Below are positions 6,957-60,596 of a DNA stretch of 64,000 nucleotides, one piece after another (positions within the stretch are counted from its first letter, which is position 1; each line of letters starts with the position of its first letter). Origin of the DNA: Patescibacteria group bacterium. GTDB lineage: Bacteria; Patescibacteriota; Patescibacteriia; SG8-24; DYFX01. Under the pieces are notes generated by a model. That model was not told the origin of the DNA. It searched no databases and was given only the letters and a program-made list of their open reading frames with translations. The translations under genes were made by a program, and so were the position numbers. The stretch is taken from contig JBAZZB010000002.1 of the NCBI GenBank assembly GCA_041659045.1, positions 21,427 to 85,426 of the forward strand, given 5' to 3'.

Positions 6957-8765
<1,809 letters not shown>

Positions 8766-8804
8766 AAAAAATAACCGACAAAGTCGGAGTTCAATCGTGG
8801 GCTG

Positions 8805-8833
8805 AGCCTACCCCTTTTTATTAGGACTGTCAA
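8805..8833 (-). promoter_or_regulatory. sigma70-like promoter upstream of typA
   Basis: On the minus strand: TTGACA, 17-nt spacer, TAGGCT, about 40 nt upstream of the typA ATG and just downstream of the dut terminator. Confidence 0.4.
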
Positions 8834-8858
8834 GAAAAAAACCCCGCATGGGCGGGGC
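8834..8858 (-). terminator. rho-independent terminator after dut
   Basis: Minus-strand hairpin CCCCGCCCATGCGGGG followed by TTTTTTT. Confidence 0.6.
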
Positions 8859-8871
8859 GGGCCAGAAAGGG

Positions 8872-9345
8872 TCACTTTCCGGTCGAGCCGTATCGGGCAG
8901 CACCACGAGCGGTCTCGGGGAGAGACTCAACTTCGAGGGTTTCCGGAACGATGAGGCGATAGAGGACAAGCTGGACCAACGACTCCCCCGCTGGAATGAT
9001 GATCTTCTTGCGACCACGGTTACGGAAACGCGGTCCAAGCGGCCCGGTGTACCCGTTATCGATCGGAGCCGAGCAAAGCTCGAGGGTCGGATACCGCTGG
9101 TAGAAACTGCTGCGCGGCTCGATACGCGCAAAGCAACCCTTCGGCAACTTTACGCGGAGACCGGTCGGCATATCGACGGGTGGACGCAGTCCTGGCAGAA
9201 CGACCGTCTCTTCGATGCTATAGAGGTTGAACCCGGCATCTCCGAGTTTCGAGGGGCGGAACTCCTCCTGGAGCTTCTTGGAGCGGGGGTCGCGTACGAT
9301 CTGGAGAACGTCCTCCAGACCCGAAAACGTCTCGGATGGGGACAT
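8872..9345 (-). CDS. dut: dUTP diphosphatase (dUTPase/dCTP-deaminase fold)
   Basis: 157 aa with GFNLYS…RIEPRSSF…IDNGYTGPLG, matching the dUTPase motif pattern. Confidence 0.75.
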   Translation of the reverse strand: MSPSETFSGLEDVLQIVRDPRSKKLQEEFRPSKLGDAGFNLYSIEETVVLPGLRPPVDMPTGLRVKLPKGCFARIEPRSSFYQRYPTLELCSAPIDNGYTGPLGPRFRNRGRKKIIIPAGESLVQLVLYRLIVPETLEVESLPETARGAARYGSTGK

Positions 9346-25729: not shown

Positions 25730-27539
<1,810 letters not shown>

Positions 27540-27542
27540 TAA

Positions 27543-27570
27543 AAAGAGAGCCTCACGGCTCTCTTTTTAT
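27543..27570 (+). terminator. ftsH rho-independent terminator
   Basis: GAGAGCC-TCAC-GGCTCTC followed by TTTTT. Confidence 0.7.
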
Positions 27571-27580
27571 GTCATTTCTT

Positions 27581-27610
27581 TTTTGTCATCCCGAGCGAAG
27601 TCGAGGGATC
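27581..27610. repeat. inverted repeat, left arm (TTTTGTCATCCCGAGCGAAGTCGAGGGATC)
   Basis: Exact reverse complement of 27908..27937. Confidence 0.85.
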
Positions 27611-27906
27611 TATTGGCCGGTGATCTCCGCACCCCAGTCTTCCCATTTCGGATTGAGACTTTCAATCAGTTTTAACTTTTTCCCTCGATTCCAATTCTTC
27701 AATTGTTTCTCTCTTTCCAACGCTCTGTCGATGTATTGAAATTCTTCATAGTAGACGAGTTGATGGTAACAATATTTTTTTGTGAACCCATCCACCGACG
27801 CCTCCTTGTGCTCTTGAACCCGACGTTCTAAATCACCTGTTATTCCAACGTAAAGAACGCCGCTCAAACTCGACAGGATATAGACATAATACTTCCGTGA
27901 TTCCAT
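27610..27906 (-). CDS. GIY-YIG nuclease family protein (98 aa)
   Basis: YYVYILSSLSGVLYVGITGDLERRVQEH…NRGKKLKLIE is the GIY-YIG motif; UPF0213/homing-endonuclease-like. Confidence 0.85.
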   Translation of the reverse strand: MESRKYYVYILSSLSGVLYVGITGDLERRVQEHKEASVDGFTKKYCYHQLVYYEEFQYIDRALEREKQLKNWNRGKKLKLIESLNPKWEDWGAEITGQ

Positions 27907-27907
27907 A

Positions 27908-27937
27908 GATCCCTCGACTTCGCTCGGGATGACAAAA
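27908..27937. repeat. inverted repeat, right arm
   Basis: GATCCCTCGACTTCGCTCGGGATGACAAAA, the reverse complement of 27581..27610. Confidence 0.85.
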
Positions 27938-27985
27938 ATACAGCTGCGTACTGGGTACCGAATCGTAATACTTCATGTCAACACC

Positions 27986-28030
27986 AAAAGAAAAAGAACC
28001 GGCTCCCGAACGGGGCCGATTCTGCGTTTG
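27986..28030 (-). repeat. terminator module copy 1 (hairpin plus T-run)
   Basis: AAAAGAAAAAGAACCGGCTCCCGAACGGGGCCGA…TTCTGCG is about 90% identical to 28750..28790. On the minus strand it folds as a CGGCCCCG/CGGGAGCCG stem plus a T-run. Coordinates are ±3. Confidence 0.5.
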
Positions 28031-28749: not shown

Positions 28750-28790
28750 AAAAGAAAAAGAACCGGCTCCCGAAAGGGGCCAGTTCTGCG
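28750..28790 (-). repeat. terminator module copy 2
   Basis: AAAAGAAAAAGAACCGGCTCCCGAAAGGGGCCAGTTCTGCG immediately 3' of the gene at 28791. Confidence 0.5.
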
Positions 28791-30058: not shown

Positions 30059-30111
30059 GGCTTCTTTTCTGTTATACTGAAAGCACTATGTTCGACTTAT
30101 TTGGAGGAGGT

Positions 30112-51300: not shown

Positions 51301-51972
51301 CCAATCGGTGCAAGACCACGTATCGGCCGTGCAGCTCGGGGTCGGTACTGGTGTCGGAGTGGGCGTCGGGGTCGGAGCCGGAGTTTCGCCTGTCGGAGGC
51401 GTCGGCAAAGGTGTCGTCGTGGCAACATCACCAAGACCCTTATCAGCGTTAATCGTGGTGGCCGAAGCGAGTTCGGCGTTGCGATCGTAGTCCGCGGCGG
51501 AAGCGATCGGCGAGCCGATCGTGTAGTTTACGAAGAAAGCGTCCGGGATATCATCAACGAGTGACGCCCAGCCCGCTCCAAAAAGCGTAGCGGCGACAGC
51601 CTCGGAGGCCACGTGACGCAAAACGCCTCCGCGGGAAATCGCGTAGACCTTAGGGTCCGTGTCGATTTTGATCATGCGGAAACCTGGGCGATACGTGACG
51701 TTGCCGCCAATGCGGCTCGCGGCCAGTTCAGCGGCGGTAACCGTCTGAACGCTGGAGAAGTCGACGTACCATGTGCGAAACACCCGTTCGTTCGGGAAGA
51801 CGTAACGCCGGCCGTTTGAACCGAAGTAGTAGACGGCGGGATTATCGGCGCGCTTGATGAGAGCACCCGGCGTCGGTGCGGCTTTTGCCGTAAGAGGCAT
51901 GCCGACGAACGACGTCGCGAGCGTAAGGAGGAGGATCAAGGCACGGAACGCGTTCGTCTTCTTCATAGGCAT
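48361..51972 (-). CDS. giant secreted protein: conserved N-terminal module, PT linker, 45-aa Cys-rich tandem repeats, CBM4/9-like domain, heparinase II/III-like (polysaccharide-lyase fold) C-terminal domain
   Basis: Signal peptide MPMKKTNAFRALILLLTLATSFVGMPLTAKA. Module YYFGSNGRRYVFPNERVFRTWY…IGGNVTYRPGFRMIKIDTDPKVY. Repeats SCTADTWSCTDWNxCSxSGxQTRxCxMTxDCAGVTTPSPATTQ in two plus four copies. CBM-like NGFETSVAGFEPNES…. C-terminal region …HHDQGAFTFYRNGWLAATN… Paralog of 57158..60580. Confidence 0.8.
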   Translation of the reverse strand: MPMKKTNAFRALILLLTLATSFVGMPLTAKAAPTPGALIKRADNPAVYYFGSNGRRYVFPNERVFRTWYVDFSSVQTVTAAELAASRIGGNVTYRPGFRMIKIDTDPKVYAISRGGVLRHVASEAVAATLFGAGWASLVDDIPDAFFVNYTIGSPIASAADYDRNAELASATTINADKGLGDVATTTPLPTPPTGETPAPTPTPTPTPVPTPSCTADTWSCTDWNSCSTSGSQTRVCTMTADCAGVTTPSPATTQSCTPTTMTPTTPSCTADIWSCTGWNTCSASGTQQRICIITNACASTVTPSPVTTQTCTPPATTPAPTPSTGTMPTVPSGYQLVDLITDNGFETSVAGFEPNESADGMVARTTASTLQGTNSLRVTVNSYGRVAFAHNYPYNGGPLGSSVSVKAKVRVDSASTAGLRLQVCSLAYLSSSSDPISTCQDYPVSTQVVDVYLNLNTNNQQLERVFFQFKLDDGGTITATVDDAHLYVVVPGSSSTGGGATSCTADTWSCTDWVMCSTSGNQARSCLMTADCAGVTTPSPATTQSCTAPSTSPSCTADTWSCTDWNACSASGGQTRSCSMTTDCTGVTTPSPATTQSCTPTTTTPPACTADTWTCTAWNACSASGSQTRTCTMTTNCSTATTPSPATTQTCSPPPTSTIYPGYTYSFPSSRPFISLRDYKQTAPTYASFRSWVDSAVAGSPGYGYTPSDAVVMYALTNQASYITHAIARVDALVAEAEADIAAGRNPEVAGDSYLEVGWVMEQVALTYDHGYDRLTASQRTRWAAFADRTIANVWDPANARWGTRSAPWSGWSIDNPGNNYHFSFLKATQLWALASQNTTWMSFLQQNKYPPLVDYFARINGGGSREGTGYGTAQKNLFEDYRMWKASTGEDLSRFSTHAKDTIDYWIHATVPMMDRFAPIGDQSRVSQPELYDYHENLVREAVSLVTGTEQARRGTWWLNNNSVTSLTGFNLRPSLLTTSDAATAPTALEYHATGVGHFFARSSWNTNASWLSFVAGPYDESHAHHDQGAFTFYRNGWLAATNNMWSHSGLQLSVGAHNVVRFSRNGSIIEQNESVSSMTYAKSGDVVTAQANLTPAYSRNSDAVQSWLRDLRFQGNTLRVHDTCQVASGVTAVFQVQVPTQPTIQADGSIRAGNLRIQGGAGYTTRLVEMRSTDTDFNSGWRVELSNPAGCEFTVDLTAL

Positions 51973-51989
51973 TTGGGTTTAAGAACTAT

Positions 51990-60100: not shown

Positions 60101-60580
60101 GGCGGCGGAATTGATGGGCGAACCGTCGGTGTAGTTTACGAAGAAGGCGTCCGGAATATCGTCGATAAGCGACGCCCAGCCGGAGCCAAAGATGGCGGCA
60201 GCGACGGCTTCAGACGAAACAAAGCGCAAAATGCCGCCACGCGAGATCGCGTAGACGCTGGGATCGGTATCGATTTTGATCATGCGAGAACCCGGGCGAT
60301 ACGTGACGTTGCCGCCAATCGTGATCGCGGCGAGTTCATCGGCCGTGACGGTTTGAACGCTGGAAAAATCGGAGTACCAGGTTCGGAAAACGTTTTCGTT
60401 CGGGAAGACGTAACGCCGGCCGTTGGAGGCGAAGTAATAGACGGCAGGATGATCGGCGCGCTTGATGAGGGCACCCGGAGTCGGTGCGGCTTTTGCCGTA
60501 AACGGCATGCCGACGAAGGACGTCGCGAGCGTAAGGAGGAGGATCAAGGCACGGAACGCGTTCGTCTTCTTCATAGGCAT
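57158..60580 (-). CDS. giant secreted protein, paralog of 48361..51972, with a different (alpha/alpha)-toroid-like C-terminal domain
   Basis: N-terminal ~180 aa are >90% identical to the paralog, including the signal peptide and module. One plus two Cys-rich repeats and a CBM-like domain follow. The C-terminal 600 aa are distinct (…YYPYCVGSFRLKNPDAAGSFHDLKYSYSEGLLSNYLLTGD…), consistent with a glycoside hydrolase/lyase-like toroid; this call is low certainty. Confidence 0.8.
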   Translation of the reverse strand: MPMKKTNAFRALILLLTLATSFVGMPFTAKAAPTPGALIKRADHPAVYYFASNGRRYVFPNENVFRTWYSDFSSVQTVTADELAAITIGGNVTYRPGSRMIKIDTDPSVYAISRGGILRFVSSEAVAAAIFGSGWASLIDDIPDAFFVNYTDGSPINSAADYDRTAELASATSINGDKGLGNIATPTPPPAPTPTPTPTPTPSCTADVWSCTDWNACSASGSQTRLCSMTTDCAGVTTPSPATTQSCTPPVTTPAPTPTPTTGQMPTVPSGSALADYITDNGFESSVGGFEPNESSDGTVSRITASPIQGTSSLRVTTNSYGRVSFAHNYPYNGGPLASSVTVKAKVRVDSASAAGLRMQICSIAYLASSGQPISSCQDYPVSTQSTDVYLNLNTNNQRLERVFFQFKLDDAGTITATVDDAHLYVVEQRAASTPAPTCTADTWSCTDWNACSTSGNQTRLCSMTSDCAGVTTPSPATSQSCSTTTPTPAPAPTPSPSCTADTWTCTDWNACSASGSQTRSCSMTTDCAGVTTPSPATSQSCTVPPPASDSTNLELSGYNSRPTTFRSMTAEMDLRNDLSSNGAAVNTTPKDVTVRLIPAADSVGQTRRVSFGFPLPPSTLVNTNNIRVTNAAGQELPAFVRSLGAWEQMPDQRLLCNGLTASGNPGIRSVLVQFDMNFSSTSPVTVTVGLNRARTQNLTSETPVRDTYRVVNDGTYAPSVNTSGLTIREPRVLAAIDNRYLDCTAIFPMVNPTGTQTYLAATDKATDDFFYSLTNQHSVKQSWPVTYADDLIDFYTDAEPWLYDRTQTFYNGYFRTGNADMLREAQRAADHYAQNIYGPENCSGTYYPYCVGSFRLKNPDAAGSFHDLKYSYSEGLLSNYLLTGDTTHLKKIGYISWAMEFHINLMGTGETERHRGYALLAHAVDAELTGSAHQRAMVTNAINTMRARQTSSLNGNAPNGCFNYPPEGENNTFSPWMSSLLAYGFLRGYQATGHSSVPAALVDLAQCEVNRGITTLQAGEDGPMSVGRYYPYYIAYSFGAKGDADPDPANGFEHSLDVSSVVALGAYFTTDMTQRTSLQNIAKQLLLTHDESIAYWTRNSDATRAAGRAVYRTVPPRKFLWQYKNAPVIGWALGGRSMW

Positions 60581-60596
60581 TTGGGTTTAAGAACTA

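Follow-up and report, generated by a model that had tools for sequence, protein, structure and literature searches.

The stretch analysed here, in the following called the window, comprises 64,000 nucleotides from a Patescibacteria group bacterium (GenBank assembly GCA_041659045.1, contig JBAZZB010000002.1, positions 21,427 to 85,426). Downstream of its ftsH gene lies a small AT-rich block in which the gene of a 98-amino-acid GIY-YIG nuclease is enclosed by a perfect inverted repeat. This block is very probably an ssn-type gene placed between two copies of its cognate recognition hairpin, a sequence termed SRM that belongs to the CGTC/TGTC-tagged class of repetitive extragenic palindromic (REP) elements. 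The locus fits a new example of the Ssn/SRM system published in 2025 and not a new kind of element. What is new here is the presence of the same block at different sites in sister genomes, which supports a relocatable cassette.

The meningococcal protein SsnA (NMV_0044/NMB0047, CDD cd10448) is a single-domain GIY-YIG protein of 94 amino acids (Chenal et al. 2025, Nat Commun 16:2388, PMC11893778). The NTS CGTCATTCCCGCGMAVGCGGGAATCYRG is the oriented form of the Neisseria repeat dRS3. Together with its relatives, the SRMs, it has been linked to SsnA proteins across phyla; an SRM was found at 71% of the homolog loci and on both sides of the gene at 42% of them, homology to SsnA being set there at tblastn E<1e-10 (PMC11893778). 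The enzymes of three Neisseria species and of Wolbachia bound the hairpin solely as single-stranded DNA (ssDNA). These enzymes cut one strand a few nucleotides upstream of the hairpin and leave duplex DNA and RNA untouched. In N. meningitidis the protein did not bind RNA, and it reduces transformation by NTS-bearing DNA (PMC11893778). The authors likened the NTS-ssnA-NTS arrangement to an insertion sequence and to the REP-associated tyrosine transposases (RAYT/REP) and left the question open (PMC11893778). A literature search found no follow-up paper to this work. The CGTC-tagged REPs had been described earlier and are defined by a tag of either CGTC or TGTC, followed by a stem whose first bases are AT and by a short tail; Neisseria dRS3 is listed among them as CGTC-1, and the class was concluded to have no dedicated transposase or enzyme (Di Nocera et al. 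2013, PMC3733652). This study is not cited in the Ssn paper.

The inverted repeat of the window consists of two arms of 34 nt with 100% complementarity, separated by 291 nt (Table 1). The initial annotation had described a perfect repeat of 30 bp that exactly encloses the reading frame. The repeat is indeed perfect and the gene is enclosed, but the arms are longer and reach into the gene. The downstream arm contains the stop codon TAG (CTA on the plus strand, 27610-27612), and the upstream arm covers the first two bases of the ATG, while its 3' half also provides a GAGG motif 5-6 nt ahead of the start codon. With up to 3 mismatches allowed, the 27-nt core of the arms has no third site in the window, and none of 100 shuffles gave a match. 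The low GC content noted initially was confirmed, with 0.42-0.43 across the block compared to approximately 0.60 on either side; the gene itself has a value of 0.424 and the whole window one of 0.576.

The encoded protein matches the Pfam family GIY-YIG (PF01541) with E=8e-15 over residues 5-77. The only further Pfam match is a weak, overlapping one to T5orf172. Homologs are mostly 93-100 amino acids long, and an alignment of 31 of these sequences showed Y9, Y19, G21, R29, H33, E66 and N85 to be invariant. The catalytic positions Y9, Y19, R29, H33, E66 and N85 are thereby all kept, and a C-terminal NPxWxD motif is conserved in the ssn-like family. The spacing of 47 residues between Y19 and E66 equals that between Y17 and E64 of N. 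meningitidis SsnA, where mutants of Y17 and E64 had lost cutting (PMC11893778). A homolog from a Methylomonas metagenome-assembled genome (MAG), locus L075, shares 55% identity with the window protein (E=7e-35), and its gene carries the exact NTS consensus on both sides, upstream in plus and downstream in minus orientation. Hairpin-flanked homologs with 55-79% identity number in the thousands. Among viral contigs there were 9 clear ssn matches and 16 contigs with the hairpin; these counts give no sign of a phage association.

Read from the outside in 5' to 3' direction, each arm has the structure TTTT-TGTC-AT-CCC-GAGCGAAGTCGA-GGG-AT-C-TAT. An unpaired TGTC tag is thus followed by a stem with AT at its beginning and by a short tail whose first base is C; both tags face outwards. 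The arrangement TGTCAT..ATC shares its parts with the NTS and with the CGTC/TGTC-tagged REPs. The stem of the arm is interrupted, with 5 bp followed by G.A/A.G, 1 bp and a 6-nt loop, compared to 8 bp and a 4-nt loop in the canonical NTS; the central GA..GA positions could, as read from the sequence, form tandem G.A pairs. Covariation within the stem was analysed in an alignment of 15 distinct hairpin copies that share their loop context. Five of the six stem pairs vary on both sides in a compensatory manner, and 97.8% of the cells are paired. None of 500 shuffles reached the observed pairing, and slid registers gave at most 59%. The stem variants were ATCCC/GGGAT, ATTCC/GGAAT, ATCTC/GAGAT, ACCCC/GGGGT, ATGTC/GACAT, ATGGC/GCCAT and GTTTC/GAAAC, and ten distinct fully paired 5-bp stems occurred in the same loop context. 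Judged by this alignment, the hairpin stem is maintained by compensatory change, i.e. by selection.

In order to relate the hairpin to the gene, we used 80 GTDB loci encoding relatives of the protein (Acidobacteriota, Patescibacteria, Clostridia, Bacteroidota, Proteobacteria, Chloroflexota and others) and a simple descriptor that asked for GTC, for 5 or more base pairs in the stem and for a subsequent C. Within the window this descriptor gave 11 matches compared to 3.6 in shuffles, short loops being present in the two arms alone. Because it gives chance matches in the window, it was used only for the comparison of near and far sequence. Tagged hairpins occurred at 2.62 per kb within 150 nt of the gene and at 0.128 per kb further away, corresponding to a 20-fold enrichment. 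The layout of the window, with the upstream hairpin in '+' and the downstream one in '-' orientation, was the commonest (17 of 26 two-sided loci). The hairpin beside homologs is often TGTCATTCCCGCGAAAGCGGGAATCCAG, and the variant of the window itself was found in L030 (Parcubacteria), L055 (Clostridia) and L068. In many homologous loci, for example L043, L009 and L074, the upstream and downstream hairpins are unlike each other in sequence.

The hairpin also occurs away from the gene. A metagenome scan for the window variant TGTCAYCCCGAGCGMAGYCGAGGGRTCT yielded at least 120 loci with a host GC content from 34 to 71%; among the matches listed, an ssn gene was present in the fetched DNA of about 6 out of 120, and singly placed copies of the variant were found as well. 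The arms are members of a dispersed REP-like family of tagged hairpins that is the cognate of the GIY-YIG gene across phyla, and are not private terminal repeats. The initial annotation had named a genome-wide REP-like family unrelated to GIY-YIG genes as a case against its proposal. A REP-like family was found, but it is related to these genes. Several copies of the variant are arranged in higher-order structures. Palindromic dimers of 89 bp with the tags outwards were observed in L176 (2341-2429) and L206 (3246-3334), dimers of approximately 170 bp with the tags inwards and extended inverted repeats in L106, L122, L134 and L153, and tandem arrays with periods of approximately 110-160 nt in L131 and L143 as well as in L053 among the GTDB loci.

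Several results weigh against the assignment to the Ssn/SRM system. The placement of the protein relies on the identity to the L075 homolog and the residue spacing as proxies for similarity to SsnA and membership of cd10448. NCBIfam provided no family model for it, and the group I intron endonuclease model reached 16 bits against a cut-off of 56. The published SRM pattern HGTCWYN(0-2)YYVSBRHN(0-5)WNVSBRGN(0-2)RNCYNB matched neither arm and gave two chance-like matches elsewhere in the window; in the neighbourhood of the genes it matched at 13 of the 80 closest loci compared to 37 of 80 for the simple descriptor. The calculated DNA fold of the arm (-2.4 kcal/mol) does not exceed that of shuffles, and the canonical NTS reaches -9.0 kcal/mol. 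Furthermore, there were no hairpin copies beyond the two arms in the window or in approximately 27 kb from the three ssn-less sister loci examined, the other copies of this lineage adjoining ssn in L208. The role of a genome-wide repeat, as in Neisseria, is not obviously applicable here. Thermodynamics alone thus gives the hairpin no support, but the covariation does. Since tag, AT stem start, paired stem and ATC tail are all present, the arm is, by its sequence features, a variant outside the published SRM pattern but the same kind of repeat.

The comparison of sister genomes revealed filled, empty and alternatively filled sites. At the ftsH site, convergent with ftsH and always in the same orientation, the cassette is present in the window and in L081, L084 and L085, with ssn proteins 68-79% identical to that of the window (tblastx) and FtsH proteins 88-93% identical. 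The site is empty in L207, L208, L209 and L210 (FtsH 95-98% identical, 89-93% nucleotide identity across S1-ftsH), so that relatives do not all share the arrangement downstream of ftsH, a comparison proposed with the initial annotation. In L207, L209 and L210 the palindrome AAGAACCGGCTCCCGAAAGGGGCCGGTTCT directly follows the ftsH stop codon, and the window has a copy of it at 27994-28023, beyond the cassette as seen from ftsH. L208, which derives from the same contig as L082, carries an ssn gene of the same clade with hairpins at a second site between an NTPase_I-T gene and a gene for a 332-amino-acid protein; the product of this ssn gene shares 73-74% amino acid identity with those of L084 and L085. 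In the window this second site is empty (Table 1). The complete sister genome CP129476.1 has ssn at neither of the two sites. The alignment between the cassettes of the window and L208 runs from TTTTGTCAT to ATGACAAAAA (window 27581-27938), and the flanks are unrelated. In L207, the closest relative (FtsH 98%), the insertion point of the L082/L208 cassette is occupied by a divergent GIY-YIG gene of approximately 90 codons (8429-8915) whose product is 38-45% identical to the ssn clade. This gene is flanked by inverted hairpins of its own, GGTTCGAGCG...GTCGAGAACC, which have no GTC tag. This constellation suggests cassette replacement together with co-evolution of nuclease and hairpin.

Compared with the empty allele, the insert of the window amounts to approximately 440 bp. 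It is approximately 87 nt longer than the repeat-bounded unit; approximately 40 nt, which hold the extra terminator hairpin, lie outside the repeat on the ftsH side and 47 nt on the other, and no clear target-site duplication was detected between the window and the empty allele. The region downstream of ftsH is variable in gene content among the sister genomes and contains repeated terminator palindromes. Because of the empty and filled sites, the two locations and the homology ending at the repeat ends, we regard the repeat-bounded block as a discrete accessory cassette that is relocatable and variably present in this Patescibacteria lineage. The cassette might be moved by its own nuclease. 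Duplicated cassettes were detected in other lineages, with 545 bp at 96.7% identity in L003, 533 bp at 89.5% in L056 and further cases in L013 and L061. In these four loci (Acidobacteriota, Clostridia) the two ssn cassettes lie within a few kb of each other and share 87-97% of their nucleotides over 430-545 bp, repeats included; one of the L061 copies gave two separate tblastn segments and is a possible pseudogene.

Recent horizontal transfer was considered as the cause of the low GC content and was rejected. In all relatives examined, including those that share the insertion site, the gene has a GC content of 0.44-0.55 compared to 0.57-0.66 in its surroundings. The GC dip thus belongs to the cassette itself and is not evidence of a very recent arrival.

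An autonomous mini-transposon is a possible but rather doubtful explanation of these findings. According to it, the 358-bp unit moves itself: the GIY-YIG protein nicks the outer tag on either side, the host completes the process by repair or replication, and the solitary hairpins are non-autonomous relatives as in RAYT/REPIN and IS200/IS605. The occurrence of same-clade cassettes at two intergenic sites with homology that stops at the repeat ends, the empty ftsH site in four close relatives, the cassette-sized duplications in L003, L056, L013 and L061 and the dispersal of the hairpin variant, its palindromic dimers and arrays included, are in agreement with such a unit, and the predicted nick would coincide with the outer end of repeat identity. 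The analogy to insertion sequences was also raised by the Ssn authors (PMC11893778). However, the ends of the indel differ from the ends of the repeat, there is a single cassette copy in 64 kb, and solitary hairpins are missing from the window and the ssn-less sister loci. The shared site of L081, L084 and L085 fits long residence, and in the hypervariable region after ftsH, with its terminator palindromes, ordinary recombination could shuffle cassettes. GIY-YIG nucleases hydrolyse DNA, and no strand joining or strand transfer is known for this family. The proposal of a selfish mini-element made in the initial annotation consequently holds as far as a small relocatable unit is concerned, for which presence, absence and homology ends provide reasonable grounds, but movement driven by the nuclease stays hypothetical. 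Only tentatively can Ssn be proposed as the enzyme that mobilises the CGTC/TGTC-tagged REPs and has long been missing for this class, i.e. as a hydrolytic GIY-YIG counterpart of RAYT/REPIN acting on a mobile cassette. It would nick ssDNA at the outward-facing tags, and the unit would then be copied or relocated by replication or repair of the host. If this were true, an Ssn-driven move would have left its natural record in the two insertion sites of the sister Patescibacteria.

The remaining explanations read the repeat or the protein differently. The arms might form a regulatory palindrome, either pairing in the mRNA or folding locally and thereby hiding the ribosome-binding site and start codon or forming an RNase III site, or they might allow inversion of the gene. 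We regard this as unlikely. A transcript containing both arms is indeed predicted to form a duplex of 34-36 bp over GAGG and AUG (minimum free energy -134.8 kcal/mol, z = -6.4), and the arms overlap the start and stop codons. Nevertheless, such long-range pairing is the trivial result of a perfect repeat, and it is not conserved; the differing flanking hairpins of L043, L009 and L074 could not pair together, and the conserved features are the tag, the local stem and the orientation. Moreover, RNA was not bound by N. meningitidis SsnA (PMC11893778). For the invertible unit that had been considered initially there is no support, as a recombinase gene is lacking nearby and the orientation relative to ftsH is identical in the window, L081, L084 and L085. 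Even less likely, indeed very improbable, is a free-standing GIY-YIG homing endonuclease or a UPF0213/YhbQ-type housekeeping nuclease within a palindromic insertion. The GIY-YIG domain and the weak T5orf172 match are compatible with it, and the nearest solved structures in a PDB sequence search were the UPF0213 proteins BH0048 and EF2693. These matches are weak (1zg2, E=2.7e-6; 1ywl, E=9.5e-4), no close homolog with a solved structure was found in this search, and they stand against the thousands of hairpin-flanked homologs described above. The UPF0213 label was thus not retained. Homing enzymes of the GIY-YIG class carry a DNA-binding extension, which is missing from the protein of 98 amino acids, and the intron endonuclease model scored far below its cut-off. 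The initial annotation was therefore right to set the locus apart from classical homing endonuclease genes and from insertion sequences, but the architecture, then considered atypical, had already been described for the Ssn/SRM system (PMC11893778).

For the Ssn/SRM cassette a mechanism can be proposed by analogy with the enzymes of Neisseria and Wolbachia. Each arm would fold when the locus, or incoming DNA that bears the hairpin, becomes single-stranded. The 98-amino-acid protein would bind the folded hairpin on the TGTCAT strand only and exclusively as ssDNA, and would nick approximately 3 nt upstream of the tag, leaving duplex DNA and RNA alone. Since the tags face outwards on opposite strands, the top strand is predicted to be nicked near 27580 and the bottom strand near 27938, within the T-runs at the outer margins of the repeat. 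These predicted positions coincide with the end of repeat identity. One possible outcome would be the restriction of motif-bearing incoming ssDNA as in Neisseria, another the generation of breaks that favour gain, loss or replacement of the cassette. The ssDNA cleavage, the nick positions and either role are thus inferred from the characterized enzymes.

Patescibacteria are thought to take up DNA. A gene for a PilB/T2SSE-type ATPase lies from approximately 31116 onwards, about 3 kb from the cassette and past the gene of a 340-amino-acid membrane protein, and is also found in L082 (108-1820) and L209 (7946-9658). Its proximity may matter if DNA that has entered the cell is a substrate of Ssn; equally, it could be a coincidence.

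The features of the locus are summarized in Table 1. As initially stated, the block lies between the terminator of ftsH and hypothetical genes, which are small and located on the minus strand. The hairpin at the ftsH stop codon probably terminates transcription in both directions, serving the convergent genes ftsH (plus) and ssn (minus), and it was seen solely in genomes with ssn at the ftsH site. The spacer 5' of the cassette may function as a promoter, as judged by its TTGACA motif; a promoter scan of the region 5' of the cassette gave no full promoter match and nothing convincing. In a search of the window against Rfam 15 only tRNAs reached the gathering score and the arms were unmatched; at E<=1 there were sub-threshold matches to two terminator hairpins only and none to the arms.

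Table 1. Position of the ssn cassette and of adjacent features in the window.
Feature	Position	Strand	Basis and remarks
ssn-like gene, 98-amino-acid single-domain GIY-YIG nuclease	27610..27906	minus	open reading frame listing, Pfam, homolog alignment
Upstream arm	27905..27938	minus	sense strand TTTTTGTCAT-CCCGAGCGAAGTCGAGGG-ATCTAT = TGTC tag, hairpin, ATC tail; same layout upstream of homologs
Downstream arm	27580..27613	plus	identical tagged hairpin, tag facing outwards; holds the ssn stop codon
Hairpin with 14-bp stem, A-run and T-run	27539-27570	no strand	starts at the ftsH stop (27539)
Spacer 5' of the cassette	27939..27985	minus	47 nt, TTGACA at 27981..27976; missing in empty-site relatives
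Empty alternative site	30059..30087	no strand	29-nt spacer in the window, from the NTPase_I-T gene to the 340-amino-acid protein gene

Further repeats were observed in the surroundings of the cassette. A lone TGTCAT is located at 27570-27575 of the window, 14 nt outside the tag of the left arm, and on the reverse strand of L085 near 2270-2330 two tandem truncated repeat heads (TGTCACCCCGAGTGGCCTTTCT) precede a full hairpin. These sequences may have been left behind by several rounds of cutting and repair at the tag. The 30-nt terminator-like palindrome AAGAACCGGCTCCCGAAAGGGGCCGGTTCT has a second window copy at 28758-28787 and recurs in L207 (7107-7150). Its copies separate small genes in a region that varies in gene content between genomes sharing 95-98% FtsH identity, and they may mark recombining gene cassettes. 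Far away from the cassette, a sequence of approximately 31 nt, CGTCTTCTTCATAGGCATTTGGGTTTAAGAACTA, occurs twice in the window (51956-51986 and 60564-60594, approximately 8.6 kb apart), probably marking a longer repeat or duplicated genes.

The first description of the Ssn family dates from 2025, and its role outside Neisseria and the mobility of the unit were left open in that work. The current understanding is not overturned by the locus of the window, which is a clean minimal Ssn example in a small-genome Patescibacteria lineage without repeat expansion. As a common hairpin variant is missed by the published pattern, the reported association of 71% may be an underestimate. The filled, empty and alternatively filled sites of the sister genomes make mobility directly testable. 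Finally, the repeats of the Ssn system are tied explicitly to the earlier class of CGTC-tagged REPs that had been reported without a dedicated enzyme.

Among the known systems, Ssn/SRM resembles the cassette in its single-domain GIY-YIG protein (98 amino acids in the window, approximately 94-98 in Ssn), in the position of the gene between oriented repeats composed of tag, hairpin and tail (xGTCAT..ATC) and in an association that crosses phyla. It differs in copy number, with two copies in 64 kb of the Patescibacteria MAG and no expansion compared to hundreds in Neisseria, and in the interrupted stem of the arm, which lies outside the published search pattern. The CGTC-tagged REPs share the unpaired CGTC/TGTC tag, the AT stem start and the short tail as well as dimers and clusters, but their published stems have 8-9 bp with 4-5-nt loops. 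RAYT/REP(IN) and IS200/IS605 likewise combine one small nuclease gene between inverted tagged hairpins with dispersed hairpin copies and recognition of the hairpin in ssDNA. Their enzymes, however, are HUH/Y1 transposases with a covalent intermediate, whereas GIY-YIG enzymes are hydrolytic and the mobility of the cassette is putative. UPF0213 proteins (YhbQ/BH0048/EF2693) and Slx1-type proteins are also small GIY-YIG proteins and include the nearest solved structures by sequence, but the similarity is weak (E=2.7e-6), the NPxWxD motif is missing there and an association with hairpins has not been described for them. The homing endonucleases I-TevI and Seg share the GIY-YIG core and the flavour of a selfish gene. 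They possess a linker and a DNA-binding domain and address duplex targets, whereas the window protein has neither domain and its gene is bracketed by its own recognition repeats.

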